Below are positions 1-42,988 of a stretch of 42,988 nt of DNA, piece after piece. Position numbers and translations under genes: made by a program. Position 1 is the stretch's first letter, and every line of letters starts with the position of its first letter. Source of the DNA: a virus; the IMG/VR virus record IMGVR_UViG_3300045988_130630. One strand, 5' to 3'. The notes beneath the pieces are model-generated. The model made no database searches, was not told the origin of the DNA, and saw only the letters and a program-made list of their open reading frames with translations.

Positions 1-248
1 ATAAGAACCTTATAACCGGCGCGCAGTTTCCGCGCATAGGAGATCTTACCTACATCACCAAGGTGAATTAATAGATCGCTTCGACCGCACTTAGAATTAA
101 TTATTTTAACAATTTCTTCGTCGGAAGGACGATTATGAATTCCCTGATGAAGATCTTCGTCTCCAAAATGAGTATCACTAATAACCCAACAAGTTTGTAG
201 ATTTTTCCATCTATCTAAAAAACTTTCATAGACACCAGGTAAATTCAT
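1..248 (-). CDS. Calcineurin-like metallophosphoesterase, partial (start codon at 248, continues past the left edge)
   Basis: The reverse-complement translates MNLPGVYESFLDRWKNLQTCWVISDTHFGDEDLHQGIHNRP..LLIHLGDVGK. The D-x-H and GD motifs are those of metallophosphatases. A GGAG ribosome-binding site sits 5' of the start. Confidence 0.6.
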   Translation of the reverse strand, partial: MNLPGVYESFLDRWKNLQTCWVISDTHFGDEDLHQGIHNRPSDEEIVKIINSKCGRSDLLIHLGDVGKISYARKLRAGYKVL

Positions 249-260
249 AATTATTACTCC

Positions 261-1190
261 TTAACAAATTCTAAAAGTTGTTGTATCCAATTTCAAATCA
301 TTAATTGATAATTTATCTAAATGAAAATATGGGATTCTAATTAACGGGATGTTATTTTCTTTACACCATTGATTTTTAAAAGCATCATGTTCTTTTGTTT
401 TTTCAAACTTTTCTAATGTATTCCAACCAGTTCCAGATTGATAATGCTATATTCCATCAAATTCAATTAAATAAGAATTATCAATATAAAAATCAAATTT
501 AGCTTTATGGTTAGTATCCTAAAATTTACAATTTTCAAAAGTTTTTTCACAAATATACTAAATATTATGTTCTTTTAATAAAGAGATAATTTTTTCCTAA
601 CCTGCTGATTGTAAACAACCACAAGATTTACTTTGTCCTTTTCTTAAAGTAGTTCCTGATACAATTTTTTGATTGCCACAAGAGCATTGGCATAACCACA
701 TAGCAGTATTATGCTAATTAGATCCACTACGTTTTAACACTGTCCATCGACCAAAAGTTTGTCCTGTTAAATCAATTGTTGTAAGTTCACCGATCTTTTT
801 ATGAATATAACAACCACATGAAATAACGGCGCCACTTACTAAACCATCTTTACGAATACTTTTAATAGTTCCACAATCACACTAACATTTCCAATAAGTA
901 TGCCCTTTTCCTTCTGTTCTATCATATCCTAAAACTGTTAGCATACCGAATTTTTTGCCTGTTAAATCTTTTAACAATTTTAAACGTTTCTAACATCCGC
1001 ATGAAGTGGTATGATTTGAAGTTAAATGAGACGCAGAAACTACTGTTTTATTACCACATTCACATTGGCATAACCAATATGGTCCGTTCCTTGGGTCTTC
1101 AACTCGATATAAAACTGTTAATTTTCCAAAATGCTAATTAGTCAAATCTTTTGCTCGGCCTACTGGAATCTATTTATAAATTTTTTCCAT
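261..1190 (-). CDS. TAG-recoded protein with three Cys-rich Zn-ribbon repeats and a C-terminal Vsr/DUF559-like (PD-(D/E)XK) endonuclease motif; putative homing endonuclease
   Basis: A 309-codon frame is open only if its 9 in-frame TAGs are read through; it has no TAA or TGA until 263. There is a strong ribosome-binding site (AAGGAG) before the ATG at 1190. The protein has three repeats of FG.LTVL...YW.C.C.CGN...SCGC. The C-terminus is KFDFYIDNSYLIEFDGI(TAG)HY, with the TAG at the conserved Gln of EYDGxQH. Confidence 0.6.
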
Positions 1191-1285
1191 AAAATCACTC
1201 CTTTTCTATTATATATATAAATAGAAAAAGATAGAATAATGAAATTTACCCGAAGTCGCCAACCCGATTATTTAACCGGGCCTCC

Positions 1286-1561
1286 TTAAAATGCGTAAGC
1301 ATTAAATTTATACATATAGAACTCGCCATCCATAAGAAGAAGTCTATCAATCTCTTCTCGATGATCGATCTTCCACCAATCAGGAGCAGAAAGAGGAAGA
1401 TCGTAATACTCGATTCGCTGAGTTTCCATAATATCTTCTTCGATTGCGCCTTCGAGGAAAGCAAGATATAACTCTTCCGCTTCTGCCTCAGAGATGTTGG
1501 CGAATGTCCAAGACTTACCAGTCATTTCATCTTCGATTTTATAACAAGTAATTTCTTTCAT
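1286..1561 (-). CDS. hypothetical protein (91 aa)
   Basis: Supplied ORF track, standard genetic code; acidic small protein. Confidence 0.45.
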   Translation of the reverse strand: MKEITCYKIEDEMTGKSWTFANISEAEAEELYLAFLEGAIEEDIMETQRIEYYDLPLSAPDWWKIDHREEIDRLLLMDGEFYMYKFNAYAF

Positions 1562-1572
1562 AGTTATTCTCC

Positions 1573-1893
1573 TTACATTTCAACCGCATCAACGAAATCA
1601 ATGAAAACATCATTTGCGACCTCGTTCATCATATCGAGATAAGAAGAAAATCTCCTTGTCCATTCGCCGGTCATCTCACCGTGGTAAAGATACCAATCAT
1701 AATCGGAATCTTTCTGAATCATTTCGAACTGACGCTCCATAAGACTATCATCGACCATATCTCGACAATATTCCATAAACATTTCCTGCATATCAGCCTC
1801 GGACGCATTCAGGAAATAGAAATTATGGTCTCCGGCCGTATCACAAAGAATACCAATGGAATGAGTTTTAATCTTAGAATTAGAAGTAGTCAT
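1573..1893 (-). CDS. hypothetical protein (106 aa)
   Basis: Supplied ORF track; standard code. Confidence 0.45.
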   Translation of the reverse strand: MTTSNSKIKTHSIGILCDTAGDHNFYFLNASEADMQEMFMEYCRDMVDDSLMERQFEMIQKDSDYDWYLYHGEMTGEWTRRFSSYLDMMNEVANDVFIDFVDAVEM

Positions 1894-1961
1894 AATTTTT
1901 ATTTCCTTTCTTTCTTTACTTTATATATATATTATATATTATTTTTTATAAAAAATCAAAA

Positions 1962-1990
1962 AAGGATTTGCGGTTTGCGCAAATCCTTTA
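1962..1990. terminator. Perfect 9-bp hairpin GGATTTGCG/CGCAAATCC flanked by A and T tracts
   Basis: Inverted repeat read directly from the sequence, lying between convergently arranged gene ends. Confidence 0.5.
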
Positions 1991-1994
1991 AAGA

Positions 1995-2210
1995 TCAGAG
2001 AACGGGAGCATAATTATAATAAATAATCATATCTTCCAATGCATTTTTGTAAAGTCCTGTATCGAATTTATGACAATGGAATCGTTTCTCAACATTCTCT
2101 TCGATCGCGGACATAGCGATTTCAAGAGCGTTAGATCCACTTACATTTGTAGCGCAATAAATTTCATCACAAGGTGCGTCATAAACGAATAAGACAGGCA
2201 TATGTTTCAT
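1995..2210 (-). CDS. hypothetical protein (71 aa)
   Basis: Supplied ORF track; GGAGG ribosome-binding site upstream (plus-strand positions 2213-2222). Confidence 0.45.
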   Translation of the reverse strand: MKHMPVLFVYDAPCDEIYCATNVSGSNALEIAMSAIEENVEKRFHCHKFDTGLYKNALEDMIIYYNYAPVL

Positions 2211-2268
2211 ATATTATTCCTCCATTAATTGATTTTACCCAAAATTTTTGTTATAATATATTTAGAAA

Positions 2269-2514
2269 TTAAAAGATTTCAATCGCGTCTTCAAAAAGAT
2301 TGAGAAATTCATCAGCTACTTCGGAAGTCGCGAGAAGGCCGGTAGAAGAACCGCCATACCAATCAATATAGATGCGCGTGAGTGGACTACCGCCAGCTTC
2401 CGCAATCTCATCTGCATATTGCTTAGAATCAACCACGGTAAAGCTAACACTATTAATATTGTTAGTATTGATAAGATACTTAAAACCGCGGAAGTTGTGT
2501 AAAATTACAATCAT
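2269..2514 (-). CDS. hypothetical protein (81 aa)
   Basis: Supplied ORF track. Confidence 0.4.
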   Translation of the reverse strand: MIVILHNFRGFKYLINTNNINSVSFTVVDSKQYADEIAEAGGSPLTRIYIDWYGGSSTGLLATSEVADEFLNLFEDAIEIF

Positions 2515-2798
2515 CTAAATGCCTCCTCAGAAACAAAATTTTTGAGTTGTCTTATAACTCTCATGCCGTCAGGATCATTGTCGCTGAAAGTGTATTCGAA
2601 GTGAGATTTATCATTCATATAAAATTCAAGTTTTGTTCCTTGGGACTCGATAGAGATATTATTATCATCATCATTATCATTCATAGTGATACGATTAGCG
2701 AGAACCGCAATGATATCATTTGCATTAAGAAAAACGCGGTCGCCATTAGACATTTTTAAATAAATCAATTCACCTTTATTCATTTTACTTCTCCACAA
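2511..2798 (-). CDS. hypothetical protein (95 aa)
   Basis: Supplied ORF track; a 4-nt overlap with the downstream gene indicates translational coupling. Confidence 0.45.
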   Translation of the reverse strand: MWRSKMNKGELIYLKMSNGDRVFLNANDIIAVLANRITMNDNDDDNNISIESQGTKLEFYMNDKSHFEYTFSDNDPDGMRVIRQLKNFVSEEAFR

Positions 2799-3384
2799 TA
2801 TAGTCTTTCGCTACGTCTGTTCCTTCTGGAATATAAAGATAAACTCGTGCTGATTTAGAGCAGATAAAGAACCACTCTCTCCAATCACCATAACGCGGGA
2901 TACGCTTTTCAACGTGCGGAACCTGATTAGAGTAAACAACCACCGTGTCATTTGCCGGATAATTCTTAGTGCTTGTAATGCCATCAGCGCTAAGAGTAAG
3001 ATAAGTATAATAAATACTTTCACCTTCGAAGGCTCGGTAAGTATAGATACAGCCATCATCATCCATACTTGTTAGCTCTTGGGCTTCCGTAATTGTATAA
3101 TCATATTCGGAATAATCCTCTTTAACAGAAGACATCATAACTCCGCCGAACATACTTACGGCAAGATAAAGACAAACGCCGATCCAAAAGGCAGGAATAA
3201 TTTGACGGGGAATGTCAACGCGGTCGCGGTGAGACCAGTTGCGGAAGTGCTTGGCCTTAGGATCGGAAAGAGTGCTGTAATAGCCATAGCTACAATAGGC
3301 AGAATGAATGGCGAAAATCAGAAAAATAATTAAGGTCGGTAGAACAAATCCGCCCACCAGCGTTTTCAAGAAGAAGACAAACAT
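2785..3384 (-). CDS. membrane protein (199 aa; N-terminal and central transmembrane segments)
   Basis: Hydrophobic stretches in the supplied ORF translation. Confidence 0.5.
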   Translation of the reverse strand: MFVFFLKTLVGGFVLPTLIIFLIFAIHSAYCSYGYYSTLSDPKAKHFRNWSHRDRVDIPRQIIPAFWIGVCLYLAVSMFGGVMMSSVKEDYSEYDYTITEAQELTSMDDDGCIYTYRAFEGESIYYTYLTLSADGITSTKNYPANDTVVVYSNQVPHVEKRIPRYGDWREWFFICSKSARVYLYIPEGTDVAKDYIVEK

Positions 3385-3398
3385 ATTTAAAAACTCCT

Positions 3399-3848
3399 TT
3401 AAAGAATAGGTTTGAGGTTATCGCAGTAATTGAAATCTCTCATACAGCCATTTTCCTCAGTGAAACAAGAACAACCATTTTGGCAAGTTTTACGAACAAT
3501 GTCGGGATTACGGACATTCATAACGGCTTGCATATTTCCAACGATTTCTCGCTTTTGGACCATTTTCGGTGTGTCGGGAGAAGCATCAAACGCGCAGTTC
3601 ACATTTTGTTCACAATTTTGGCACGTGCCAAGTTTTGCCCAACATTTATCGCAATAAGTGTTGCCTTGATCGTCGATGATCATTTGCTTATGGAAAATTG
3701 GAGTATGACATGCTTTACAAGTGTAATATTCACCGCAAAGAAAATTATCGCAGATCGCATGATTTGGATCAATTGTGTTGCCTGTGATTTGACATAATCC
3801 GGTCGTTGGCCGGTAATAACCGCAGTTATTACAATAAAAAGTCATCAT
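3399..3848 (-). CDS. cysteine-rich protein with multiple CxxC pairs (149 aa), putative multi-Zn-ribbon protein
   Basis: About 24 Cys residues arranged in CxxC pairs in the ORF translation. Confidence 0.5.
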   Translation of the reverse strand: MMTFYCNNCGYYRPTTGLCQITGNTIDPNHAICDNFLCGEYYTCKACHTPIFHKQMIIDDQGNTYCDKCWAKLGTCQNCEQNVNCAFDASPDTPKMVQKREIVGNMQAVMNVRNPDIVRKTCQNGCSCFTEENGCMRDFNYCDNLKPIL

Positions 3849-4099
3849 AGCATTTTAGCAGAATATGGAGCATCTTCGTCGTCAAATTTTAGAATCTTAT
3901 CGGCGAGTTCGCGATTAACGCGCAAAGGACCATCGTTAAGAGGAGTAAATGCGACAGTGATAAGACCATCGAAGTATTCCTCGGCCCACTGACCGGCTCG
4001 CGCGAGATTTTCTGCGAAGATAAAACCGCACGAAAGTCTATCTATTTTATCGTCTTCATCCCAATAGCGCGCTTCATAATAAACGGGATACTGATCCAT
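3845..4099 (-). CDS. hypothetical protein (84 aa)
   Basis: Supplied ORF track; ATGA overlap with the upstream gene. Confidence 0.45.
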   Translation of the reverse strand: MDQYPVYYEARYWDEDDKIDRLSCGFIFAENLARAGQWAEEYFDGLITVAFTPLNDGPLRVNRELADKILKFDDEDAPYSAKML

Positions 4100-4115
4100 A
4101 TTTATTCTCCTTTCT

Positions 4116-4454
4116 TTAAGAAATTGTAGAGATTAAAAAGATCTCAGGGTCATCGAGCGTCTCGATGGGGATTTTGAGAAACTTTGCGTAAGCTTCCTTC
4201 ATTGTGTCATTAAGGCGATAATACTCTTGTGGAGCGATGAAGATATTGTCAATGCGGACGGCCTCTCCCGAGTCAGAAGCACCGAGAAGATAACCAAAGA
4301 TAGGGTTCTCATCGTCATCATAGTAGCTCGCGCGATGCCAATATCCTGCTTCGGTAAGCTGTTCGATAGCTTCAGCCATATTATCATAGTTCTCAAGAAG
4401 GTTCTTGGGGACTTTATAACCGCACACGAGTTTAGAACCAAAATCAACAGACAT
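4116..4454 (-). CDS. hypothetical protein (112 aa)
   Basis: Supplied ORF track. Confidence 0.45.
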   Translation of the reverse strand: MSVDFGSKLVCGYKVPKNLLENYDNMAEAIEQLTEAGYWHRASYYDDDENPIFGYLLGASDSGEAVRIDNIFIAPQEYYRLNDTMKEAYAKFLKIPIETLDDPEIFLISTIS

Positions 4455-4455
4455 A

Positions 4456-4653
4456 TTACTTGTCCTCCTTAAGAATAGAATTGATAAAAGTGCTATATTC
4501 AGTGGGTCTTACACAATACGCGGTTTTTGTTCCATTATCCCAAAAAACATATATAAGCTTGTTAGATTCAGAATTTTTTACGGCAATTGAATAAATATGA
4601 GTCGTATTAATGATATGAGTTTGACCTAAATAATCAATAAGCTTAGCAAGCAT
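4456..4653 (-). CDS. hypothetical protein (65 aa)
   Basis: Supplied ORF track; AAAGGTG ribosome-binding site upstream. Confidence 0.4.
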   Translation of the reverse strand: MLAKLIDYLGQTHIINTTHIYSIAVKNSESNKLIYVFWDNGTKTAYCVRPTEYSTFINSILKEDK

Positions 4654-4788
4654 TTTTTATCACCTTTAATAGTTTTTCTTTATTTTATATTTATATTATA
4701 TATTAAAATTTAATAAAAATCAATAAAGCGGTTTTGTCGCCTTAGGGTGGCGTAGAGACTGGATTCAATGATCGGCTTATCAAAAATG

Positions 4789-4895
4789 GTCATTTTAAAT
4801 GAAAATGGTCAAAATTTTCTGATAAATGGTCAAAAATTTCTATACTTTTGTCCGTTTTTTTCTATATTTCTGGTCAAAAATTTCTGATGAAGAGA
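4789..4895. repeat. Four direct repeats of about 15 bp, TGGTCAAAA(A)TTT(T)CT (iteron family 1)
   Basis: Read directly from the sequence. Confidence 0.6.
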
Positions 4896-4952
4896 TCGGA
4901 CAGCAAGTATAGAGGCGGATTAGGGCAAAGGAAACCGCATAGGTAAAAATTT

Positions 4953-5172
4953 TAGGTAATTTTTCATAGTTGCTTATAAAAATGTTAAATAAAATAGGTA
5001 ATTTTTCATAGTTGCTTATTTTTATATAGATGTCTAAATTTTAAACAAAATAGGTAAAAATTTTAGGTAATTTTTCATAGTTCCCTATTTTTATTTAGAA
5101 TTTGTAGGTAATTTTTAATAGTTAGCGATCGGTTTAGTTAGAATTTTTAAGAAATTTTTCATAGTTGCCTTT
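4953..5172. repeat. Five direct copies of the 23-bp iteron TAGGTAATTTTTCATAGTTGCTT (iteron family 2); three further copies lie at 5873-5961
   Basis: Copies begin at 4953, 4995, 5065, 5105 and 5150, with partial copies at 4940 and 5051. Downstream copies begin at 5873 and 5906, with a partial copy at 5939. Confidence 0.7.
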
Positions 5173-5246
5173 AAAAATATACTTTGGGTAAAAATTGTTA
5201 AAATTACTATTTTAGATTTGAAGTATATATGAAGGAGGTGGAAGCA

Positions 5247-5879
5247 TTGTCAGTAGAGTAGAAAAGATTTCCTGCTAATGTAGATATGAATATATTAACT
5301 TTTTTAAATAATAAGAAAATAAATGGTGAATTATATGCTTATTTATAGAGTTTATCTGAATATAATGTTATTAGTAAATAGCATAATATTTATAAAACTT
5401 ATGTATTGAAAAAATGGTTGCCAATTCAAAGTAAGATGTGTCAAATGCTTGGTATTAAAAGCCCTAAAACATTAAAAACGCATTTGAATTATTTAATTGA
5501 ACAAGGGTATATTATAGAAGAAGAAGATAGATATATATTACCTGAAATGGAAAATATATATTTTCTTATTCCACTACATACATTAAGATATATAAATGAT
5601 AACTGTAAAGAACATATTATAAAGATATATATTTATTTAGGATAGCGTTATAAATATGCATTAAATAATGGAAGTTAGTATGAATTTACATTAGAGGAAA
5701 TTGGAGAACATAGTGGTATAAAAGTAAAGAATAACAGCAGGGGCTATGAGATTATTAATAATGCTTTAACATTTTTATAGAATTCAGAATTAATTGATTA
5801 TGTTAGTTTTTTTGATGGGCAGATGCAGAAAAAGAAATTAACAAAATTTAGTTTTGAATATAAAAATTAGAATAGGTAA
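5247..5879 (+). CDS. TAG-recoded winged-helix DNA-binding protein, putative replication initiator or origin-binding protein (about 210 aa)
   Basis: TTG start 5 nt after GAAGGAGGTGGA. The frame is open to a TAA at 5877 only if 7 TAGs are read through. The translation contains ..KSPKTLKTHLNYLIEQGYIIEEEDRYILPE.. (a winged helix-turn-helix). The gene is flanked on both sides by the 23-bp iterons. Confidence 0.5.
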
Positions 5880-5992
5880 TTTTTAATAGTTGCCGATGAG
5901 CATTTTAGGTAATTTTTCATAGATGCTTCGACTTAAATTAGGTAAAAAATCATAGATTATCTAAGTAATAAGTAGAGGGTGTTTTCTAAGTA

Positions 5993-6044
5993 GTTTGTAT
6001 GATACAAACGATCGGCATCCGCCTCACTTTGTATCATACAAACG
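5993..6044. terminator. Perfect 17-bp inverted repeat (GTTTGTATGATACAAAC ... GTTTGTATCATACAAAC) with an 18-nt loop, followed by TTTGATTTTT; terminator or operator
   Basis: Read directly; each arm is itself nearly palindromic. Confidence 0.5.
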
Positions 6045-6080
6045 TTTGATTTTTAGATGAAAAGAAAGGTGATAAATAAA

Positions 6081-6365
6081 ATGGTTAATGAAGAAAGAAG
6101 AATAAATTCTTTAGATTATGCTATGTATGAATTTTTAGATCAAATAGGTAAAACAGATTTAGCAAAAGATTTATTAGAAGGGGTTATTTAGTATTATTAT
6201 GAGAGTAATTATTATGGAGATAATGAATTTGTAAAAGAATATTTAAAATGGTTTAGTTAGGGATATTTAGATAGAATAATTAAAGAAAATTATATGGAAT
6301 TAATGATAGATGAAAGTTAGAAAGATATTCGTGAAAAATATAAAGAAGAATTAGATTTAAATTAA
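6081..6365 (+). CDS. TAG-recoded hypothetical protein (94 aa, 3 TAGs)
   Basis: AAAGGTG ribosome-binding site; frame open from the ATG at 6081 to a TAA at 6363 with TAG read through. Confidence 0.5.
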
Positions 6366-6415
6366 AAATATTATTATTGGTAAATTATATCTTAGAGTAA
6401 AAGGAGTAAAAGGTA

Positions 6416-6730
6416 ATGATATATGAAAATATAAGAGGAGGAAAGGGAAATCCTTCAATAGTAAAATTTATGAGAGGAACGCAAGAATAGTTTGATAAGA
6501 TGGATAAAACAAATATGGTAAAACCTGATTTATATTTAAAAGATGACACTATTTATTTTGTTATTCCAGATAATACAAAACCAATTAAGGTAAAGTATGA
6601 TGATAGAAAAGTAGAATGGAATGAATCAGGAGTAGGAAGTTTAGTTAAAAATAATGATAGACCTGAATCAATAGAAGAAAATCCATTTTTACAAGAGTCA
6701 ATTAACTCGGATACTACGTATCCTCGTTGA
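6416..6730 (+). CDS. TAG-recoded hypothetical protein (104 aa, 1 TAG); C-terminus ..SDTTYPR
   Basis: AAAGGAG ribosome-binding site; the ATG at 6416 is in frame with track ORF 6500-6730 through one TAG. Confidence 0.5.
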
Positions 6731-6919
6731 TAAGGGTATTATTGACTTCGGGCATAAATGCCCTCGTTGATAAGGGCTCTACTTGATTTATAATAAATAA
6801 TATATTATAATATATATAATAAAAGAAAAAATGAAATGAAAAATAATACCCCGTAGGCAGGGAGGATCGTAGATCCGAGTCGCCTGCCCGCGTGGCGAAC
6901 GCAAAATGAAAGTAAGGAT

Positions 6920-7309
6920 TTGAAGATTGAAATGAAATTTACAACTGAAGAATTAAAGAAGAATAATGGAGAAAAGGTAGGCGTCTTCCGCAATTGGAAT
7001 GTAATCGCAACTACTAAGAAAGAGTTCTTTAATAGAGAGAATACGCAAGGCGCATACCTTATCTGGGACGACTGCAATAAGTTGGTTTTTAATGGTAAGG
7101 TTGTTGGTCGAATTACCGAGCAAGGTAAGGTGAATTATATCGAGAATGAATATAGATATGTGAAGCCGGTTCTGGAAACTTCGGGCACAAGTGCCCTCGT
7201 TGATAGGGTTGCTCCTGGATCAGAAGATGTGGATCTTAGTAAGCGCACGCTTGCTGATGACATTCTTGATAGTGCGTTTAAAATAAAGTTGGAGGAGCTT
7301 TTAGTGTAA
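6920..7309 (+). CDS. hypothetical protein (129 aa, standard code) carried inside the insertion
   Basis: Supplied ORF track; weak ribosome-binding site; contains an internal repeat copy. Confidence 0.35.
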   Translation: MKIEMKFTTEELKKNNGEKVGVFRNWNVIATTKKEFFNRENTQGAYLIWDDCNKLVFNGKVVGRITEQGKVNYIENEYRYVKPVLETSGTSALVDRVAPGSEDVDLSKRTLADDILDSAFKIKLEELLV

Positions 7310-7319
7310 GGAGGATATT

Positions 7320-7415
7320 ATGAGTGGTATTATTTGGTTTTTAATTGGTGTTGCTGTTGGATATTGCTTATGGAACGCTGGAAGAGATGACTCGGATACT
7401 ACGTATCCTCGTTGA
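7320..7415 (+). CDS. small membrane peptide (31 aa) MSGIIWFLIGVAVGYCLWNAGRDDSDTTYPR
   Basis: Strong TAAGGAGG ribosome-binding site 6 nt upstream; the C-terminal 7 residues are encoded by the duplicated repeat. Confidence 0.4.
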   Translation: MSGIIWFLIGVAVGYCLWNAGRDDSDTTYPR

Positions 7416-7596
7416 GATGGTGAGTTTATATTGGCTTATCCGCTTCTGGATAGTAATTAAATTGATGGGTAAAGAATTGGAAGACGTGGAATAAAATTAT
7501 AAAGATTGGTGGAAACGTTGAAAATTGCGTTTGTGTGGTGCCGATCGGTTTAACTAACTACCAATCACATTTTCCCCGTCTCCGTTCTCCGAACCT

Positions 7597-7634
7597 AAAA
7601 AAAAGAGAGACTTTTTTTAGTCTCTCTTTTTTCA
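7597..7634. terminator. Bidirectional rho-independent terminator (AGAGAGAC/GTCTCTCT hairpin flanked by A8 and T7 runs)
   Basis: Read directly. Confidence 0.6.
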
Positions 7635-7699
7635 TATTAGGCAATTCTTGGTGAAATTGTCAATTCTTAGGATGAAATATACCCCACCTGAATAAGTTT

Positions 7700-8077
7700 T
7701 CACTTGTTAATGAAAGTATTCAAAAAATCGGCAATTACATCATCGTCAGTTCTCTTAACCTTCTTAACCTTTACCTTCTCACTCTTGGGAAAAAGCACAT
7801 CAAGAAGATCGTTAACCCCGGTCATAAGACCATAAACCTCAGCAAAGATATTCTCCACATCGGACGCGGTCAACTCAGAATCCTTGTGGCCATTAAGAGC
7901 GGCATACTCGTTAATCCGATCGGCGATTTCCTGCGCGAGCGCGGTCTTCCGATCGGCCTGCTTGGACTCCTTCTCCACCTGCGCGACCGCAGCGTTCAGA
8001 GACTTAGCCATTTCGTCCGCAATAGCCTGAGCGTCCTCACCATTCTTCAGACGAGCAATAATATCATTCATATCCAT
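7700..8077 (-). CDS. hypothetical protein (125 aa)
   Basis: Supplied ORF track. Its promoter is at 8109-8137. Confidence 0.55.
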   Translation of the reverse strand: MDMNDIIARLKNGEDAQAIADEMAKSLNAAVAQVEKESKQADRKTALAQEIADRINEYAALNGHKDSELTASDVENIFAEVYGLMTGVNDLLDVLFPKSEKVKVKKVKRTDDDVIADFLNTFINK

Positions 8078-8108
8078 ATGAATACCTCTTTTCTTATTTT
8101 CTATATAT

Positions 8109-8137
8109 ATTATATACTATTTTTTTAAAATTGTCAA
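8109..8137 (-). promoter_or_regulatory. sigma70-type promoter (TTGACA, 17-bp spacer, TATAAT) for gene 7700-8077
   Basis: Reverse-complement of 8109-8137 reads TTGACAattttaaaaaaatagtaTATAAT. Confidence 0.55.
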
Positions 8138-8590: not shown

Positions 8591-8593
8591 TAT

Positions 8594-9120: not shown

Positions 9121-9127
9121 TTTTTCG

Positions 9128-34946: not shown

Positions 34947-34963
34947 TAAGGAGGACATACTAA

Positions 34964-35890
34964 ATGTTTAAAGACTTTTTGAATAGTCATTTAGGTATCA
35001 AGGGTATCCCTAAGTCTCAGGCAAAGTATGTTGAGTTTGGTTACGGTCAGGTCGAGCCTAATCACCTTTCCGCGCAAAGAAATGCTCAAATCTATGCTCA
35101 ACTTCCTGCCAATAAAGAGATTGAGATTCTTGAAAACGGTCAGTTTGTAAAGTATGACTATGCTGCTAATGGTAACGGTATCGGCGAAGTCAACTTTACT
35201 GGCGAAGGTGAATGGATGCTCGTTTATAATGAGATTAAGCTTTATCGTGATCATCCAGATGGAACCAAGCAGTGGGATTGCGAATTTGCTATGATTAAAG
35301 ATGACTATCAGGCTCGTGTTTATAGCCCTTATGATTGGGAGCATACCGAGGTTGAATATGGTGGTCGTTTCTGGAATGGTGTTGATGAAAAGGGTCAAAC
35401 TTATAAGTTAATCGAGCAGACTGTTTCCGCTGATCAGGGCTTAAAGACTGTTACTATTGCTGGTCGTGTTTATGACGTTGTTGATAATAAGTTTACTTAT
35501 GATGGTAATGAATATACTCTTGATAGTAATCATCAGGTTGCTAAAGTTCCTGTAAAGTATTACTATGATAAGGTTCTTACTGATGTCCCTGACATGTATG
35601 AAATGAATTGGACTAATAATCCATATCATAAGTTAGGCATCTATCATGAGAAGTTCATGGAATCTGGCACTTCTATGGTTCCTCGTGTATTTAAGACCAT
35701 GATTGGTGATCTTTATACTACTAATATGATTAATGAAGATACTCTTGTTGTTGGAGATAAGCTTTCTCCTTCTGCTGATACAAAGGGTATTCTTAGCAAA
35801 ACTGGCGACGATTCAATGACCTGGCAGGTTGTTAAAGTTTATACTATGCCTGATGGTCAAAAGGGCGTTAAGGTAATGCGTATTAAGTAA
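34964..35890 (+). CDS. structural protein (308 aa, no TAG), capsid-associated
   Basis: Supplied ORF track; AAGGAGG ribosome-binding site; no TAG codon; lies between the scaffold-like and capsid-like genes. Confidence 0.5.
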   Translation: MFKDFLNSHLGIKGIPKSQAKYVEFGYGQVEPNHLSAQRNAQIYAQLPANKEIEILENGQFVKYDYAANGNGIGEVNFTGEGEWMLVYNEIKLYRDHPDGTKQWDCEFAMIKDDYQARVYSPYDWEHTEVEYGGRFWNGVDEKGQTYKLIEQTVSADQGLKTVTIAGRVYDVVDNKFTYDGNEYTLDSNHQVAKVPVKYYYDKVLTDVPDMYEMNWTNNPYHKLGIYHEKFMESGTSMVPRVFKTMIGDLYTTNMINEDTLVVGDKLSPSADTKGILSKTGDDSMTWQVVKVYTMPDGQKGVKVMRIK

Positions 35891-35907
35891 GAAAGGAGAA
35901 AAGGATA

Positions 35908-37017
35908 ATGTTAGATAAAAATAATTTAATTGCTCTTATGAAGCAAGTTGCTAAGGCTGATCCTTCTGCTCCTGTTGCTTATAGTTATGAGGGAAAAAAT
36001 CTTAGTTATGAAGCCTTGAATGAAACTCTTCGTAATGAAATGAATGAGTTGGCTGGCACTTACGCTCTTTATCGTGAAAATAAGAATCTTATTTTCTCTA
36101 TGATTGAGCAGACTCTTGATGAGGTTCTTCCTAAGAAAGTTATTCAGCAATATGATCAGTTTGCTGAGGTTAAGACTTTCGCTCAGGGTGATAAACCTAT
36201 CTTCCGTCGTCCTCTTAATAATCGTGCTCGTGCTAAGCAGTTTGTAACTCGCGTTGGTCTTGCTGGTATTTATGAAGTCTTCAAGCTCGGACCTAAAGAG
36301 AATGAAGCCTTCGAGGTACGTACTAGCGCTATCGGCGGAGCTGCTCAGATCGGCTTCGAAGAGTTCCTCGATGGTCGTGTTGATTTCGGTGAAGTAACCA
36401 AGATCATCATGGATGGTATGGATGAACTTATTTATAAAGAAGTCGCTGCCGCTCTTAGATCTTCTATCAATCAGCTTCCTCCTGCTAACCGCGTTGCGGC
36501 TGCCGGATTTGATGAAGCTGCTATGGATCGTTTGATCACCATTGCTTCTGCTTATGGTACTCCTACTATTTATTGTACTTATGAGTTTGCTGTTAAGATG
36601 ATTCCTCATGAGGCTTGGAGATATACTGAAGCTATGAAGAATGAGCTTTGGAATAATGGTCGTCTTGCTACCTATAAGGGCACTAAGGTTATTATTCTTG
36701 AGCAGGGCTTTGAAGATGAAACCAATACTCGTAAGGTTATTGATCCTGGTTATGCTTGGGTTATTCCTACGGGCGCTGATGGTAAGCCTGTAAAGATTGC
36801 TTTCGAAGGTGGCACTATTGTTGACGAGTTCAACAATTATGATCGTTCTCGTGAGATTTAGGTTTACAAGAAGGTTGGCGTAGTTTGCATGCTCGCTAAT
36901 AACATCTGTGCTTATGTTGATACTTCACTTCTCGGTCAGATGTATACTTGGAATTATGATGGAGTTACTGGCAAGGTTATCACTTATGATGGTCGCCTTA
37001 GTGGTGCTACTGTTTAA
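35908..37017 (+). CDS. putative major capsid protein (369 aa, one TAG near the C-terminus)
   Basis: Track ORF 35908-36861 extended through one TAG to the TAA at 37015. AAAGGAGAAAAGG ribosome-binding site. Immediately followed by a strong terminator. Position after the scaffold-like gene. Confidence 0.45.
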
Positions 37018-37034
37018 TTTAATATAAATTATTC

Positions 37035-37080
37035 CATGGGGAGAAGGGATTAAACTCCCTCTCCCCATATTTTTGTTTTA
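37035..37080 (+). terminator. Rho-independent terminator (GGGGAGAAGGG..CCCTCTCCCC followed by ATATTTTTGTTTT) after the capsid gene
   Basis: Read directly. Confidence 0.6.
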
Positions 37081-37103
37081 TGAGTAAAAGGAGAAATTGA
37101 ATA

Positions 37104-37697
37104 ATGATTAATAATGAAGATATTTATAATGTAAAAAATAGAAGCACTAGTGTAGTTGTTTATACTATTCCTGATACTAATTTGCGTCGTGAATTTGCGC
37201 CCGGTGAAACTAAGCGTATTCCATTTGGTGAGCTAGAAAAATTAACTTATCAAGCAGGCGGCCGCGAATTAATTGCTAATTTTTTACAAATTTTAGAGCC
37301 AGAAGTAACTCATACTCTTAATGTTCATACTGAACCTGAATACAATATGTCAGAGCAACAAGTTGCTGATTTAATTCTTAATGGCTCATTAGATGCTTTC
37401 TTAGATGCTCTTGATTTTGCTCCTATTGGAATTATTGACTTAATCAAGAATTTATCTGTTAGCCTTCCTATTACTGATATTAATAAGCGTAGAGCTTTGA
37501 AGGAAAAAACTGGGTTTGATGTTGATAAAGCTATTGCTAATGATATCGCTAGTAAAGAAGAAGATACTATCGTAGAAAAAGAACCTGCAACTAAGCGCCG
37601 TGTAGTAAGAGAAGAACCTACTACTCAAGGTCGTCGTACAAGCGGTTCTGGATATAAAGTAATTAATAAAACCGAGGAAACTTCCTCCAAGAAATAA
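37104..37697 (+). CDS. hypothetical structural protein (197 aa, no TAG)
   Basis: Supplied ORF track; AAAGGAGAAA ribosome-binding site. Confidence 0.5.
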   Translation: MINNEDIYNVKNRSTSVVVYTIPDTNLRREFAPGETKRIPFGELEKLTYQAGGRELIANFLQILEPEVTHTLNVHTEPEYNMSEQQVADLILNGSLDAFLDALDFAPIGIIDLIKNLSVSLPITDINKRRALKEKTGFDVDKAIANDIASKEEDTIVEKEPATKRRVVREEPTTQGRRTSGSGYKVINKTEETSSKK

Positions 37698-37716
37698 TTT
37701 ATAGGAGGGCGATTAA

Positions 37717-38289
37717 GTGGGAACATTATTCTCAACTGTTTATAATCGCTTTCTAAACAAGGTTACTGATGATATGTATCTGGAATTGACCCCTGAAGAT
37801 ACTCTAAGAGATTTATAGAATCTTATAATAGATGCTATTCCTGGATTTGAATTTCCGCGAAAAAATCTTTTAGATTATAATTTAGATGTTGCTACTATTA
37901 ATGAATCTGAGGCTATGCCAAATGATTTTATTGTAGGAACAGTATGGGGAGAACTTCCAGAACCGGGTGAAGAACCTCAAGTTTTAGTTGATAGATCCAG
38001 CTTTAATTGTGATCTAACTGAAGAAGAAATTAATATTTTAGCTATTTTAATGATGTGCGGTTGGACGCAAAGACAAGTCACTTCAATTGAGAACACTCGA
38101 ATGAAATACAGTGGCTCTGATTTTAAATTTACTTCTTAGGCAAATCATTTATCAAAGTTATTAAACTTATTAGGTGAATGCCAAAGACAATCTCACCATA
38201 TGTAGCGTTTATATAAACGTAGACGTTTAAATAATAAAGGTGAATATGAATCTAATTGGGATGTGTTTAAAAGTCGATATGATTACTAA
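37717..38289 (+). CDS. TAG-recoded hypothetical protein (190 aa, 3 TAGs), possibly a head-tail connector
   Basis: AGGAGGG ribosome-binding site then GTG; in frame with track ORF 37915-38139; open to the TAA at 38287. Confidence 0.4.
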
Positions 38290-38587
38290 ATATAATTTTG
38301 ATATTCCAATAGAGAGTATAAAAGTAAATTGTTTGCGCTTAACCAATCAATTATGGAAATTAATTCCAATGCGCGAAAATAATGAAGATTGGCATAAATA
38401 GCTAGAAACTGTTATAAATGAAATTGTGGGGTTTAGTGTGATTTTTAGCGCTGAACCCCTTTATTTATAGTTATTAAACAAACTTGAGGGATTGTAGAAT
38501 CAAGATACTGATTTTAATTTTTATCGTAAGACTGTATTTGAAACGATTAGTCTTTTATAGGAGATAAATTATGGCATCAGGGTTTGA
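38279..38587 (+). CDS. TAG-recoded hypothetical protein (about 102 aa, 4 TAGs); start uncertain
   Basis: Frame open from the ATG at 38279 to the TGA at 38585 with TAG read through. Confidence 0.3.
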
Positions 38588-39635
38588 TTATAGTAGTAAG
38601 CAACCTTTTAGATTACAACAAGGTCGCTTAGGAATTTATGATAAGCCACCCTTTGAAGGTAGCCCTGTTGAAGGCGTTAATTATACAGCGGTTCGGCTCG
38701 GTTAGATGGGCGGAAACCGCCAACAAGAGCGTATGATTTTATCTAAGCGCAGAAGTTTAGATAGAGCAGTATGGAATTCATATCAAGCCGCGGAAATTAT
38801 TAAATAGGATGCGGAATATAAAAAACCTATTAGGTGTTTGATTAATCCTAATAAATTAAAATAGGATTATGATGACAAGATTTTGTCTGTTGGAAATGAA
38901 TATTAGTTTAAACCGGGAGATATTTTTGAATGGTGTGGAACTAATACCTATTGGATTTGTTATCTTTAGGATTTGACTGAATTAGCTTATTTTAGAGGAG
39001 ATATTAGGAAATGCTCTTATAAGATAAATTGGGTAGATGAGGGAGAGAAGAAATCTACTTATGCAGCAATTCGCGGTCCTGTAGAAACGAAAATTGATTA
39101 TATTCAGAAACATGAAATTAGTATAGATAATCCCAATTATTCATTAAATATTTTAATGCCAAAAAATAAAGATACGTTAAGATATTTTAAACGTTATACT
39201 AAATTTTATTTAGATAGTTAGGATGAGGGAGATAATTTAATTTGTTGGCGTGTTGAAGCTGTAGATTCTATAAGTATGCCTGGCATTTTAGAAATCAATG
39301 CGACTGAATATTATACTAATGAGTAGGAAGACAATTTAGACGATAAGACTGTTGGTTCTTTAATTACAGAACCAATTGATCCAAATCCTACGACAACTGA
39401 TATTATAGGGGAAACATTTATTTTTCCAAAGAGAACTTATACTTATTATTTTGATGGTGAAGTTGTTTTAGAATGGAAAATAAAAAATAATAAAAAGTTG
39501 CCGGTTTCTTTAAAAATTATTAAAGAAGCAAAAAAGCCAACAGTTGAAATAAGTTGGACTTCTGGATATAGCGGATAGTTCGATTTATGTTATGGAGACT
39601 ATAAGAAAACGATTGTAGTTCAATCATTGTTTTAA
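38571..39635 (+). CDS. TAG-recoded hypothetical structural protein (354 aa, 9 TAGs)
   Basis: ATG at 38571 after a GGAG ribosome-binding site; in frame with track ORF 38973-39221; open to the TAA at 39633. Confidence 0.45.
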
Positions 39636-39650
39636 GGAGTAAAAGGTGTT

Positions 39651-40232
39651 ATGAAAATTAATGGTGTAAATTTACCTAAATCAAGTTTTTTTTCTGTTGA
39701 AAAAGATTTAGAAATTATTGTAAAACATCTCTGTAAAAATGAGAGATTAAAGCGCTTATTGTATTATACAACAAAAGATGCTATTGATAAGCCAGATTTA
39801 AATGATGAACAAATGATTCAATTATTTAATAAAAATATTAAGTTAATTCCTAAGCTTTATGTTGATGGAAGTGTATTAAATTATTTAATTATTAATTTTG
39901 ATAATTTTACACAAAGCGGAAATCCTGAGTTTAGAGATAATATTGTTGAATTCGATATTATTTGTCATTTTGATCAATGGCATTTAAAAGATTATCAATT
40001 GCGCCCTTATCGTATCGCCGCAGAAATTGACAGCATGATAGATAAAACACATTTAACTGGTATTGGCAAATTAGAATTTCTTGGTGCGAATCAAATTATT
40101 TTAACTGATGAATATGCTGGTTTATGCCTTATGTATCAGGCAGTTCATGGCGAAGAAGATAAAAAATTTATGCCGAATCCTAATGACGAGGAAAGATTTA
40201 TAGAAGATTTTAAAAAAAGAACTGAAAAATAA
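39651..40232 (+). CDS. hypothetical protein (193 aa, no TAG)
   Basis: Supplied ORF track; AAGGAG ribosome-binding site. Confidence 0.5.
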   Translation: MKINGVNLPKSSFFSVEKDLEIIVKHLCKNERLKRLLYYTTKDAIDKPDLNDEQMIQLFNKNIKLIPKLYVDGSVLNYLIINFDNFTQSGNPEFRDNIVEFDIICHFDQWHLKDYQLRPYRIAAEIDSMIDKTHLTGIGKLEFLGANQIILTDEYAGLCLMYQAVHGEEDKKFMPNPNDEERFIEDFKKRTEK

Positions 40233-40957
40233 TGGATATTAGACTTGGGTTAATGACAGGTATTGATTTGCCAATACCTGAATTAGAAGTCACTATTCAT
40301 TAGCCATCTATAAAAGAGATTTCTTTTATAGGTGAAAAAGATCTTTTCTTGGGGATTTAGTGCTTATGTATTGATAAAAACATAATAGAGAATTCGGGCG
40401 AAAGTCTTTTAAGAGAAACAAATAATTTTTAGATATTTATGACAATGATGAAAGAAAAAGAGATGGCCGATAAAAAACAAGCATCTATATAGGTTCTTAC
40501 ATTATTGTTTCCAAAGCAAAATGTTTTATTTACCCCGAGGTCAATTGTTTTACAAGGTGACCCACAAATAATGATTGACGAAAGCAATTTTAATATATTA
40601 TAGGAATATATTAAAGAAATATTTTGTTTTAAATCTAATGCTTCGCAAGAAATGGGATTCAATCCTGGAAATGCGGCCGCGAAAAAGATAGCCGATAAAT
40701 TAATGCGAGGTAGACAACGTGTCGCTGAATTAAATGGCACGGCTAATGCTAGTATATTTAGTTAGTATCTTTCAATGCTTACTATAGGTCTTGATTCAAT
40801 GTCTTTACAGGATTTAATGGATTTAACAATGTTCCAACTCTATGACCTTGTTGAAAGATATCAACTTTATATTAATTGGGATATTGATATCCGGTCTAGA
40901 TTAGCGGGCGCGAAGCCTGATAATAAGCCGGATAACTGGATGAAAAATATCCATTAA
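40232..40957 (+). CDS. TAG-recoded hypothetical protein (241 aa, 7 TAGs)
   Basis: ATG overlaps the upstream stop (TAATG); in frame with track ORF 40775-40957. Confidence 0.45.
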
Positions 40958-40981
40958 ATTTTTTAAGGAGGAAAAAAACCT

Positions 40982-41965
40982 ATGAAATTTGGTGTACGCG
41001 AAATTTGCGATGTCGTTTTAAAGGCAAAGGCTAATCAAAAGATTGGTAATAAGCAATTTTATAAGAATGAGCCAGTTATTTATTTCGACACTTTAAAGAC
41101 TTCCAGTATGGAAGGCGCTGCTACCACCGTATACGCACAAGGTGGACGTGGTAATACTAACTTAGTCGCATGGGAAGGCGAGCGTACTGTTACCTTCACA
41201 ATGGAAGATGCTCTTATTTCTCCTGAAGGTTTCATGATTCTTTCCGGTGCTGGTCTTGTTGAGGCTTCTGCTAAAAATAAGATTAAGCAACATATTACTC
41301 AAACTGTTGATAAGACTAAAGACATTGTCCCTGCTAATACTGAAAAAGACATTAAAACTGATGGATTGATTATTCCTGTCTCTTATGCCCCTTATCTTGA
41401 TAATGAACATAAAGATGACGATTATGTTTATGTTTTCTTCATGAAGGATGGCGAAATTATTTCTGAGCCTTATTTAGCACATGAAGGAGTTACCACTGGA
41501 GACGCTGGTTTTAGTGTTACCGTAAAGGGATTTGCTCGTTCTACTGGAGCGGCTTATACCACTAACGATTTAGAGAATGATTATGCTAAATGCGATTCTG
41601 TAATGGTTGATTATTACACTGAGCGTGAATCTGGCGCTAAGCAGATTGAAATTACTGCTGATAAGTTCGGTGGTAACTACTATCTTGAAGCTTCTACCTT
41701 ATTCCGTAATCAAGATGGTGTAGATATGCCTGCTGAATTTATTATTCCTAACTGCAAGATTCAATCCAACTTTAACTTTACAATGGCTTCTTCTGGTGAT
41801 CCTTCTACTTTCACCTTTACTATGGATGCATTCCCTGATTATACTCGTTTCGATCATAGTAAGAAAGTTTTGGCTGCTATTCAGATTATTGAAGAAGACG
41901 AAACTGTTGACAACGATATTCGTAGAAAGACCGCTGCTGATAGCACCATTGCTGTTGGAGGCTAA
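40982..41965 (+). CDS. putative major tail (tube) protein (327 aa, no TAG)
   Basis: Strong AAGGAGGAAAAAAACC ribosome-binding site; no TAG; followed by a small gene and a strong terminator. Position downstream of the head genes. Confidence 0.4.
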   Translation: MKFGVREICDVVLKAKANQKIGNKQFYKNEPVIYFDTLKTSSMEGAATTVYAQGGRGNTNLVAWEGERTVTFTMEDALISPEGFMILSGAGLVEASAKNKIKQHITQTVDKTKDIVPANTEKDIKTDGLIIPVSYAPYLDNEHKDDDYVYVFFMKDGEIISEPYLAHEGVTTGDAGFSVTVKGFARSTGAAYTTNDLENDYAKCDSVMVDYYTERESGAKQIEITADKFGGNYYLEASTLFRNQDGVDMPAEFIIPNCKIQSNFNFTMASSGDPSTFTFTMDAFPDYTRFDHSKKVLAAIQIIEEDETVDNDIRRKTAADSTIAVGG

Positions 41966-41970
41966 TTAAT

Positions 41971-42153
41971 ATGGTTGTAAAAGGTCCAGTAAAATATACT
42001 CCACCAAAACAGCCTAAAAAAGAATCTACTAAAAAGCAGCCAAAAGTAGAAAAGGCTGTAAAGAAAGAGCTTATCGAGCCTATTGAGGAAGTAGTTCTTC
42101 AAGAGGAAGATGAGGTAAGTAAGATTTTATCTGAATTAGATAAAAAAGATTAA
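41971..42153 (+). CDS. small basic/acidic protein (60 aa, no TAG)
   Basis: Supplied ORF track. Confidence 0.4.
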   Translation: MVVKGPVKYTPPKQPKKESTKKQPKVEKAVKKELIEPIEEVVLQEEDEVSKILSELDKKD

Positions 42154-42154
42154 T

Positions 42155-42195
42155 TAATGGGAGAGAATAGAAATATTCTCTCCCATTTTTTTGTT
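42155..42195 (+). terminator. Rho-independent terminator (GGGAGAGAATA..TATTCTCTCCC followed by ATTTTTTTGTT)
   Basis: Read directly. Confidence 0.6.
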
Positions 42196-42217
42196 ATGTG
42201 AAAAAGGAGGATTAAAT

Positions 42218-42988
42218 TTGGTAATTAAAAATAATTATAGTAATAATAGTCAAGAAAGTTAGAAAATTGCTGAGGATTTTATTTATTGGACTGAAGATAT
42301 GATAAAAGAGCAGTTATAGTAGGAACATTTTAAAGAATTATATGAAAAAATAAGAAAATCATCAGAAATATTAATTAAACATTTTACTATTTTTGATAAT
42401 ATTTAGAAAAAGCATAATAGTAAAATAAATAAATCAATGACTATGACTTTAAATTTATTAGAATAGAAAAAAATATTAATCTATTAGGAATTTTTTAATT
42501 TATAGAATTTAATTAATGAGTTTTTAAGTCAAGAAATAAAAATTACTGCTGTTTATGTTGATCCAATTACAGGCCAAAGAGAGATTAGATTAATGGATAA
42601 TGATATAAAAAATATTCAAGCAGTTGAAAAAACATCTGTATAGGGTTATAATTATGCTAAATTAGAATATGATATGAATTAGCATTATGAAAATTTAAAA
42701 AATGCTTTGCCAGATGATGATAATAAAGGACTATAGAATACAGCAATGCAAGTGGAATTAAGATATAATAAATATAAAAAGAGAATATTATGGTATAAAA
42801 ATTAGTGGAAAGGATATACAATGTCTACTCGTGGTCCTATTAATGAAGCATTTGTATCTTTTTATATAAATAATATTAAATTTAATTCAGATCTTGAAAC
42901 AAATATTGATTATTTTATGTTAGATCCTACTATGGGTGCAATTAATGCTGATAATATGAATGGATTTTTAATTGGAGACGTGTCTGGG
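42218..42988 (+). CDS. TAG-recoded protein, partial (at least 257 codons with 13 in-frame TAGs; continues past the window end)
   Basis: AAAGGAGG ribosome-binding site then TTG at 42218. There is no TAA or TGA in 771 nt of 25%-GC sequence in this frame, which is open only if TAG is read through. Confidence 0.45.

Follow-up and report, generated by a model that had tools for sequence, protein, structure and literature searches.

Introduction

The T4 seg and mob genes are freestanding homing endonuclease genes of large phages, and in T4-like phages and cyanophages a partition of codon usage between early and late genes is linked to phage-encoded tRNAs. Closer to the subject of this study are two described groups. 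Gut phages that are partially recoded, with TAG reassigned to glutamine (Gln; 'code 15'), were reported by Borges et al. (bioRxiv 10.1101/2021.08.26.457843). The phAss-1 group was published in 2023, and Phassvirus members share 80-86% nucleotide identity (PMC10607447). Here we analysed the IMG/VR virus record IMGVR_UViG_3300045988_130630, a stretch of 42,988 nt (the window, always at its full length), in which the guanine plus cytosine (GC) content changes in steps and some genes carry in-frame TAG codons. The window is probably a genuine, contiguous part (about 43 kb) of a tailed-phage genome of about 97 kb and of gut type, with TAG as Gln in some genes and with GC steps that are synonymous codon-usage steps between functional modules and not joins between foreign genomes. 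An earlier note, made from the sequence alone, had described three sharply different compositional and coding regimes, and had offered mosaic assembly from different lineages, expression-phase-specific codon adaptation or a chimeric contig as explanations.

Results

GC steps and synonymous codon usage

GC content was profiled in 1-kb sliding windows and by exact interval counts. Recursive likelihood segmentation placed breaks at 4541, 6848, 26078 and 42115, which separate segments with GC contents of 0.363, 0.246, 0.423, 0.326 and 0.225 from left to right. The first split had a likelihood ratio of 260, compared with a maximum of 13.4 among 100 shuffles. The steps seen by eye exist, and the segmentation boundaries lie near the positions proposed for them. 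For the recoded regions, previously put at 30-33% GC, we computed 32.4% (27240 to the end) and the acceptable values of 29.1% (261-1190), 29.6% (26335-27100) and 34.2% (21563-22363); the 25.0% found for 4700-6730 was rated acceptable along with the other recoded regions. The left block (1286-4454) has 38.5% GC, close to the suggested 40%. The figure of about 50% for the early block was too high: 7700-26000 has 42.5% GC, and no 1-kb window in it exceeds 48%. What remains of the three sharp regimes are two sharp ones and an intermediate left block, to which a separate class of small inserts, rich in A at third codon positions (A3), has to be added.

The GC content of third codon positions (GC3) is 0.22 in the late genes, 0.52 in the middle (early) block and 0.37 in the left block, and amino-acid composition is near-identical across all blocks. 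The difference between the blocks is purely synonymous. Broken down by base, third positions of the late genes hold 0.09 C (C3), 0.13 G (G3) and 0.49 T (T3), those of the middle block 0.29 C, 0.23 G and 0.29 T, and those of the left block 0.22 C and 0.45 T; in the small islands A3 is 0.42 and T3 0.38. GAT makes up 0.88 of the Asp codons in late genes versus 0.39 in the middle block, and CAT 0.94 versus 0.46 of the His codons. Gln is written as CAA (0.56), CAG (0.15) and TAG (0.29) in the late genes, and as CAA (0.35) and CAG (0.65), with TAG at 0, in the middle block.

Reassignment of TAG

A read-through joint was defined as a TAG codon with at least 40 open codons on either side. There are 54 such joints on the plus strand of 27291-42988, seven on the minus strand of 1-1208 and four on the minus strand of 7651-26200. 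In the last of these regions the control counts were 73 for TGA and 31 for TAA, and therefore the missing TAG read-through in the middle block is not an artefact of the definition of open reading frames (ORFs). From 27.3 kb onwards, the plus strand contains short, broken ORFs in the standard code, which turn into a tight array of genes of 190-580 codons when TAG is taken as sense. Full-length PHROG matches cross in-frame TAG codons in TerL, the portal, the sigma-like family and the HNH and GIY-YIG nucleases. Besides the late block, three nuclease genes show TAG read-through. Recoding of TGA or TAA was also tried and rejected, as it did not recover the ORF lengths of the late block and its gains elsewhere were spurious, as expected in GC-richer DNA.

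A search of IMG/VR with the sigma-like protein of the window (encoded by 27293-28348) returned 476 related loci, recoded as well as standard-code. Orthologues were aligned codon by codon. Of about 38 TAG sites of the window, 24-28 correspond to CAA or CAG in standard-code relatives; the remaining aligned residues are mostly Glu or Lys, and the Tyr codons TAT and TAC never occur there. Both TAG codons of the sigma-like gene fall in columns with Gln in all other lineages, and this gene carries 1-7 TAG codons in every recoded lineage and 0 in standard-code lineages. Across 49 distinct ortholog sets the sum of TAG and CAG is constant (18.8 +/- 2.1 per 1000 codons), and so is CAA (21.7 +/- 2.3), while the densities of TAG and CAG are inversely related (rho -0.52). 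Going by these alignments and counts, TAG is Gln and has specifically replaced CAG, not CAA. For annotation, late-block and nuclease genes should be called with TAG as sense, and all others with the standard stop set.

In the left arm of a close relative, beyond the window (L139:11869-15903), several minus-strand genes that are rich in A and T at third positions (AT3-rich) adjoin the tRNA array and carry 3-6 in-frame TAG codons each. Thus, recoding is not limited to the structural module.

Contiguity of the window

The sharp boundaries of composition and code are themselves what a chimera of two or three phages or organisms would produce, and concatemer-type assembly artefacts do exist in this data set, as shown by the many related IMG/VR contigs whose length is roughly double that of the genome. 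Nevertheless, such a chimera is extremely improbable, and we reject the suggestion of a mis-assembled contig. The same neighbours were found at both junctions in 10-19 separately assembled, near-identical contigs, in other metagenomes as well, and in an unrelated metagenome-assembled genome (MAG). All of the 15 close relatives, which are about 96% identical, have the junction at 26-27.3 kb, 10-11 contigs cover 1.3-13.4 kb including the junctions at 4.5-7.7 kb and the stretch at 7.45-7.7 kb, and a GenBank MAG contig from another study is collinear over window positions 6904-17665. In all 50 loci with 10 kb on either side, drawn from many metagenomes, the sigma-like gene stands beside a GC-richer upstream block, the GC difference between upstream and late block being 0.06 on average (range 0.01-0.105). 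The published relative phAss-1 has the same intragenomic pattern. Sharp GC steps in such contigs are not to be read as assembly errors.

Overlapping loci of the contig of a close relative (IMGVR_UViG_3300045988_126669) tile a composite map of 97.5 kb with 0 mismatches in 51,720 overlapping bases, and the window maps onto this composite in order. No end overlap was detected in the terminal 3 kb of the composite, which leaves the exact genome length unfixed. By length, related IMG/VR contigs fall into two classes, one near 97 kb and one near 190-197 kb, and the longer class probably consists of head-to-tail, double-length assemblies of the ~97-kb genome.

Rare variants and mutation bias

Variants were compared among 17-18 close genomes, which are related and recombine, with the rare allele taken as derived (majority-allele polarisation). 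The only suitable outgroup contig (3300014039_000024) fails to align to the early block at 85% identity or more, and this divergent genome was left out. Among the singletons of the early block, 584 are GC>AT and 400 AT>GC (binomial p=5e-9), implying an equilibrium GC of 0.34, below the observed 0.43. The late block has 273 AT>GC versus 189 GC>AT singletons (binomial p=1e-4), mostly unclustered, and its implied equilibrium of 0.42 lies above the observed 0.33. The same holds for C/(C+T) at third positions, where the equilibrium is 0.35 versus an observed 0.50 in the early block and 0.32 versus an observed 0.14 in the late block. The two blocks differ in their rare variants with a chi-square of 70 (p=7e-17). 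With rising allele frequency the implied equilibrium approaches the observed state, and in the late block it drops from 0.32 to 0.23. These spectra hint at one mutational equilibrium common to the two codon regimes, from which each of them is kept apart. The opposite asymmetries argue against a mutation bias specific to each block and are such as selection in opposite directions would give.

A purely mutational origin of the late codon regime would need a strand-specific or transcription-associated C-to-T bias on the late coding strand, turning NNC into NNT and CAG into TAG with neither selection nor adaptation to tRNAs. Several observations speak for such a bias. Loss of C from the coding strand accounts for about three quarters of the GC difference (C 0.13 late vs 0.21 early; G 0.20 late vs 0.24 early), the late block has a GC skew of +0.2 to +0.3 throughout, and a T3 of 0.49 beside a C3 of 0.09 has the expected direction. 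Furthermore, CAG and TAG are one C-to-T change apart, and it is CAG, not CAA, that TAG replaces. However, third-position variants of the late block are mainly T>C (141) and not C>T (50), and the late equilibrium C/(C+T) is more than twice the observed value and close to that of the early block. Since the two equilibria are similar (0.32 late, 0.35 early), the mutation process looks alike in both blocks, and the fall of the late equilibrium with allele frequency is the pattern expected if T>C changes are selected against. We therefore regard a mutational origin as unlikely.

tRNAs of the window and its relatives

Scans for tRNAs and known RNAs found none in the window, and a walk along close relatives found no tRNA in the 17 kb on the left of the window position or in the 20 kb on its right. 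A tRNA array lies about 20-32 kb to the left of this position in the close relative 126669, which is about 97% identical in the late block. It holds 20 tRNAs, including one with a CTA anticodon (L180:16472-16561, about 30 kb left of the window position); a relative of 78% identity (L181) has 30 tRNAs, two of them CTA. The array of the close relative comprises GNN tRNAs for Asn, Asp, His, Tyr, Phe and Ile (six NNY two-codon boxes). A34 tRNAs (Thr-AGT and Leu-AAG), which are unusual for bacteria and suited to T-ending codons, occur in the L180 and L139 arrays. Judged by its anticodons, the tRNA set of the relative would fit the T-ending bias of the late genes. At L139:15229-15299 and L141:15233-15303, ARAGORN reported a tRNA with an abnormal anticodon loop and a two-base 'anticodon'; its loop, CTTCAAG, could present UCA or UUC.

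Code, composition and mosaicism

It had been proposed that code and composition travel together. At block level this is true for the window, as its TAG-containing genes have a median GC3 of 0.21 versus 0.47 for the TAG-free ones (p=6e-9), which is a block effect, but the rule holds neither within the late block nor across relatives. TAG density and GC3 are unrelated within the late block (rho 0.04), where TAG-free genes are equally AT3-rich (GC3 0.16-0.32). Across the family, TAG density and late-gene GC3 are related with a rho of about -0.44, a value that ignores phylogeny. All four combinations of code and step exist: most lineages are recoded and have a step, the L077/L079 clade is recoded without one, L030 combines the standard code with a step of 0.057, and the L062 clade has the standard code, a late-gene GC3 of 0.22 and no step. 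Code and composition are thus separable. In the 97.5-kb composite, most of the genome is T3-rich, TAG-free genes included, and the GC3-rich part is essentially the early block. According to the published view, low GC precedes recoding (Borges et al., bioRxiv 10.1101/2021.08.26.457843), with which the family pattern agrees.

A mosaic origin was supported for the small AT-rich islands, which are sporadic among close relatives: the GIY-YIG gene (21563-22363) occurs in 0 of 15, the HNH gene (261-1190) in 3 of 11 and an iteron cassette (4.5-6.25 kb) in 2 of 11. Mobile nucleases had been noted earlier in the recoded, AT-rich islands, and the GIY-YIG gene lies inside the GC-richer block. Presence/absence polymorphism and atypical composition mark these islands as mobile inserts, with the nuclease as the mobility gene in the HNH and GIY-YIG ones. 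The gene content of the early block is hypervariable, which by itself does not amount to an origin as one piece from another lineage.

The GC steps might also stem from horizontal transfer alone, without selection. The early block would then be a turnover zone that is refilled from GC-richer donors (hosts or phages) and decays to the AT-rich baseline of the phage, and the recoded core would represent the native composition. Indeed, the early block is hypervariable at 96% late-block identity. It is shared only patchily among close relatives, with identities of 0.89-0.94, compared with 0.96-0.98 for late-block DNA. In 35 distant relatives, all of which share the late block, hardly any homologous DNA of the early block was found; yet the block at this place is GC-richer in 50 of 50 loci. 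Its per-gene GC3 is heterogeneous (0.32-0.73), its rare variants are biased towards GC>AT with an implied equilibrium (0.34) equal to the present GC of the late block, and it is the outlier in the mostly T3-rich genome of the close relative. Transfer leaves unexplained, however, why the late block lies below its own rare-variant equilibrium, with its excess of AT>GC. In addition, no donor was found; the only matches of an early gene in bacterial genomes were phage-like MAG contigs. In their amino-acid composition, the early genes do not stand out from the other phage genes. We consider this origin possible, with the balance tipping against it; it is compatible with codon-usage steps between functional modules and does not exclude them.

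Left part of the window

The HNH-family homing endonuclease gene at 261-1190 (minus strand) matches PHROG 374 (E=4.6e-61) and PHROGs 559/9084, and these matches cross TAG positions. With nine in-frame TAG codons, it is open only if TAG is sense; its GC content is 29% and its GC3 0.16. The left block (1286-4653, minus strand) follows with about ten small TAG-free genes, called from ORFs and codon statistics. None of them has a Pfam match. All of the 11 close relatives share the block, with an identity of about 88%.

The region 4700-6730 had been listed as recoded. This applies to its coding part; 4700-5200 and 5870-5930 belong to a non-coding iteron array, in which TAG occurs within the iterons themselves. 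The repeat array (4787-5168, plus strand) consists of four ATGGTCAAAAATTTCT-type repeats and five 21-nt iterons in the same orientation (TAGGTAATTTTTCATAGTTGC), and two more iterons lie at 5873-5926. In the window, the iteron gave seven matches at up to three mismatches, versus 0 expected in shuffles. Flanked by these iterons, the gene at 5229-5879 (plus strand; GC 23.5%) has seven in-frame TAG codons and encodes a winged-helix-like DNA-binding protein, with weak matches to HTH_36 and LexA_DNA_bind and a match to PHROG 3502. We take it for a putative initiator of an origin-like cassette. In the close relatives lacking the cassette, unrelated DNA takes its place, and no mobility gene was recognised in it. 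The cassette may thus represent a replicon module that is accessory or open to exchange, and not the essential origin of the phage. Immediately past the downstream iterons there is a perfect 16-nt inverted repeat (GTTTGTATGATACAAA) at 5993-6008 and 6028-6043.

Two small AT-rich ORFs follow on the plus strand, 6057-6365 (three TAG codons) and 6416-6730 (one TAG codon), neither with a family match in Pfam or PHROG. A short hairpin occurs in four copies (6705-6735, 6745-6775, 7178-7208 and 7390-7420), each followed by CTCGTTGA(T/G)A(A/T/G)GG. The copies form two sub-types, one pair being 94% identical, and two of them overlap the C-termini of small ORFs that end in ...DSDTTYPR*. A perfect 14-bp hairpin at 7599-7632 lies between the plus-strand genes (5229-7420) and the convergent minus-strand early block, and looks like a bidirectional terminator.

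Early block and its GIY-YIG insert

The early or accessory block (7700-26128, minus strand) contains about 40 small, TAG-free genes at 42.5% GC. Most of them have no family match. The few annotated products are a DnaQ-like exonuclease (11470-12246), a HAD phosphatase (14105-14605) and an AbrB/MazE-type regulator (15726-16178). Such gene content is usual for early or accessory regions of phages. The minus-strand genes at 9636-10013 and 12389-12769 are clear paralogues of 125-126 amino acids with the highest GC3 of the window (0.73 and 0.71). The GIY-YIG homing endonuclease gene (21563-22363, minus strand; GC 34%) matches Pfam GIY-YIG/SegE and, over residues 1-249, PHROG 314 (E=2.7e-39), across its two in-frame TAG codons. 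In place of window positions 21361-22585, contig 126669 has 149 bp.

Boundary at 26-27.3 kb and late module

At the promoter-proximal end of the minus-strand block lie two AT-rich ORFs (26335-27157, minus strand; GC 27-30%) with one TAG codon each. They have no family match in Pfam or PHROG and are conserved in 15 of 15 close relatives, not in distant ones. A consensus scan predicted a divergent promoter region at 27129-27268. Towards the sigma-like gene it reads as a perfect sigma-70 consensus (TTGACA-17-TATAAT, 27240-27268), and in the direction of the early block as an 11/12 match (27157-27129). If these predicted promoters are functional, the sigma-like gene would be transcribed by the host polymerase and fully translated only once TAG is suppressed. 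This gene (27293-28348, plus strand) is the first of the recoded block; it matches PHROG 5767 ('sigma factor', E=9e-55), a label from which its putative identity as a sigma factor is taken, and its product has a C-terminal zinc ribbon and no sequence match in Pfam or PDB.

The conserved late packaging and structural module (28398-42988, plus strand; GC 32%) was assigned by PHROG matches and is common to the distant relatives at about 72% DNA identity. It encodes TerL (29585-31324), a small homing-endonuclease-like protein (31337-31693), the portal (31707-33356), the major capsid protein (35908-37017, by tblastn), a virion structural protein (40982-41965) and several further conserved virion proteins. 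In tblastn searches, the capsid protein also showed a distant likeness to annotated Bacillus phage capsids. The last ORF (42158 to the end) is the most TAG-dense gene and coincides with the lowest-GC segment of the window (42116-42988, 22.5%). Its orthologue in a relative has 16 TAG codons in 341 and is located just upstream of the tape-measure gene.

Database searches for near-identical phages and hosts

When 34 kb of the window were compared by megablast with 50,697 phage records of GenBank, nothing matched; a near-identical phage is not among them. The search of bacterial genomes for a host returned only MAG contigs resembling the phage itself and was unusable as host evidence. One of them, CAMELE010000001.1 (L110; 163,874 bp, 'uncultured Mollicutes bacterium'), is collinear with the early block at 87-96% identity. 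It is probably a mis-binned copy of the present phage, and the bin could be a weak hint to the host.

Discussion

Of the explanations offered earlier, expression-phase-specific codon adaptation fits the large blocks best, in view of the synonymous difference, the opposite variant spectra and the tRNA set of the close relative. We propose that early genes would be read by the unmodified host apparatus, with TAG as stop and the host tRNA pool. The phage tRNA set, including a CUA suppressor, might then allow the sigma-like protein, virion proteins and nucleases to be made in full. The late module (27.3 kb to the end, plus strand) relies heavily on T-ending codons and on TAG for about 29% of its Gln, the minus strand of 7.7-26.1 kb holds many small, fast-exchanged early or accessory genes that are TAG-free and GC3-rich, and the left block is intermediate. 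Small A3-rich inserts with TAG codons, namely two or three homing-endonuclease genes and the iteron-flanked cassette, are mobile on their own. Recoding and AT-rich codons may coincide as properties of second-phase genes on an AT-rich background, neither being the cause of the other.

Several points weigh against this interpretation. The early-block excess of GC>AT is equally expected from recently acquired DNA that decays to phage composition, and under majority-allele polarisation of recombining genomes, a similar asymmetry could be produced by DNA imported from relatives that differ in GC. TAG is missing from some AT3-rich genes, and TAG and composition are uncoupled in some lineages. tRNA arrays vary among close relatives, and L138 and L143 have no tRNA in the corresponding stretch; as the window itself holds no tRNA, a suppressor in its genome is presumed. 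In the close relative, the CTA tRNA measures 90 nt, has a long variable arm and does not have the expected shape of a Gln acceptor; a tRNA-Tyr(GTA), also of 90 nt, is located some 600 nt away (L180:17135-17224). Moreover, we infer expression timing from gene content and orientation, and a codon match of the early genes to host tRNAs is presupposed. Finally, an iteron-flanked putative initiator with seven TAG codons fits poorly with replication functions that are early and in the standard code.

The shape of this CTA tRNA contrasts with the alignments, in which TAG is Gln and never Tyr.

It is tempting to speculate that the late genes are actively kept in a two-layer 'private dialect', consisting of TAG as Gln and of an extreme preference for T-ending codons served by the phage's own tRNAs (A34 Thr-AGU and Leu-AAG, and the full GNN set for the NNY boxes). 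We put this forward tentatively and would sooner expect it to fail than to hold. If it were true, codon composition itself, beyond the recoded stop, would be a translational timer or barrier, and the opposite rare-variant asymmetries would reflect ongoing, opposed selection on early and late genes of one genome. The family of 476 loci mixes recoded and standard-code members with and without a GC step. Being well sampled and mixed in both states, it is good material for studying how stop reassignment spreads, and it could also show whether selection, beyond mutation bias, separates early and late codon usage.

The phage belongs to the broad phAss-1 / Enterococcus-EF1-related group and is a member of an already described class, the partially TAG-recoded phages. 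Only modestly new are the GC3 split within one genome and the opposite rare-variant asymmetries. It shares with the phages of Borges et al. (bioRxiv 10.1101/2021.08.26.457843) the confinement of TAG to structural, late and some selfish genes, with early genes compatible with the standard code, a phage suppressor tRNA (here in a close relative), a strong preference for TAA as stop, an AT-rich background and close standard-code relatives. A recoded homing endonuclease within an early gene was described there as well. In contrast, the present lineage is not among the named clades, as far as testable; its recoded and non-recoded genes differ by about 0.3 in GC3 within one genome, whereas GC was considered there only at the whole-genome level; and its first recoded gene is sigma-like and stands behind a predicted consensus promoter of host type.

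With the phAss-1 group the phage has in common the capsid (50% identity to phAss-1, about 40% to EF1-type phages of Enterococcus), a genome that is large, of siphovirus type and equipped with an exceptionally long tape-measure gene (2,775 codons in the close relative), TAG recoding in virion genes, a tRNA array with one or more CUA suppressors (here in relatives of the window) and a mixture of recoded and standard-code members. In our own analysis, TAG-rich genes of phAss-1 have a GC3 of 0.20-0.27 and TAG-free genes one of 0.45-0.7, which is not discussed in the phAss-1 paper (PMC10607447). The present phage does not belong to the proposed genus Phassvirus (phAss-1, BK046881 and BK025033): at megablast level it has no DNA similarity to phAss-1 or any other GenBank phage. 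Its genome has about 97 kb versus 133-138 kb, gene order differs, and its whole late block is AT-rich, whereas the capsid genes of phAss-1 are GC-rich and TAG-free.

The islands resemble T4-type homing endonucleases: they are GIY-YIG or HNH genes, small and AT-rich, that are inserted between phage genes or into them, with presence that is polymorphic among close relatives. They differ by their in-frame TAG codons and by an A3-rich bias distinct from the T3-rich late genes, and because of these TAG codons the nucleases can be produced only in a suppressing cell. As in the early/late partition of T4-like phages and cyanophages, the difference is synonymous and late codons would be served by phage tRNAs, a link drawn here from the genome of a relative. 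Unlike in that partition, the split is large (GC3 0.22 vs 0.52) and is joined with a reassigned stop codon.

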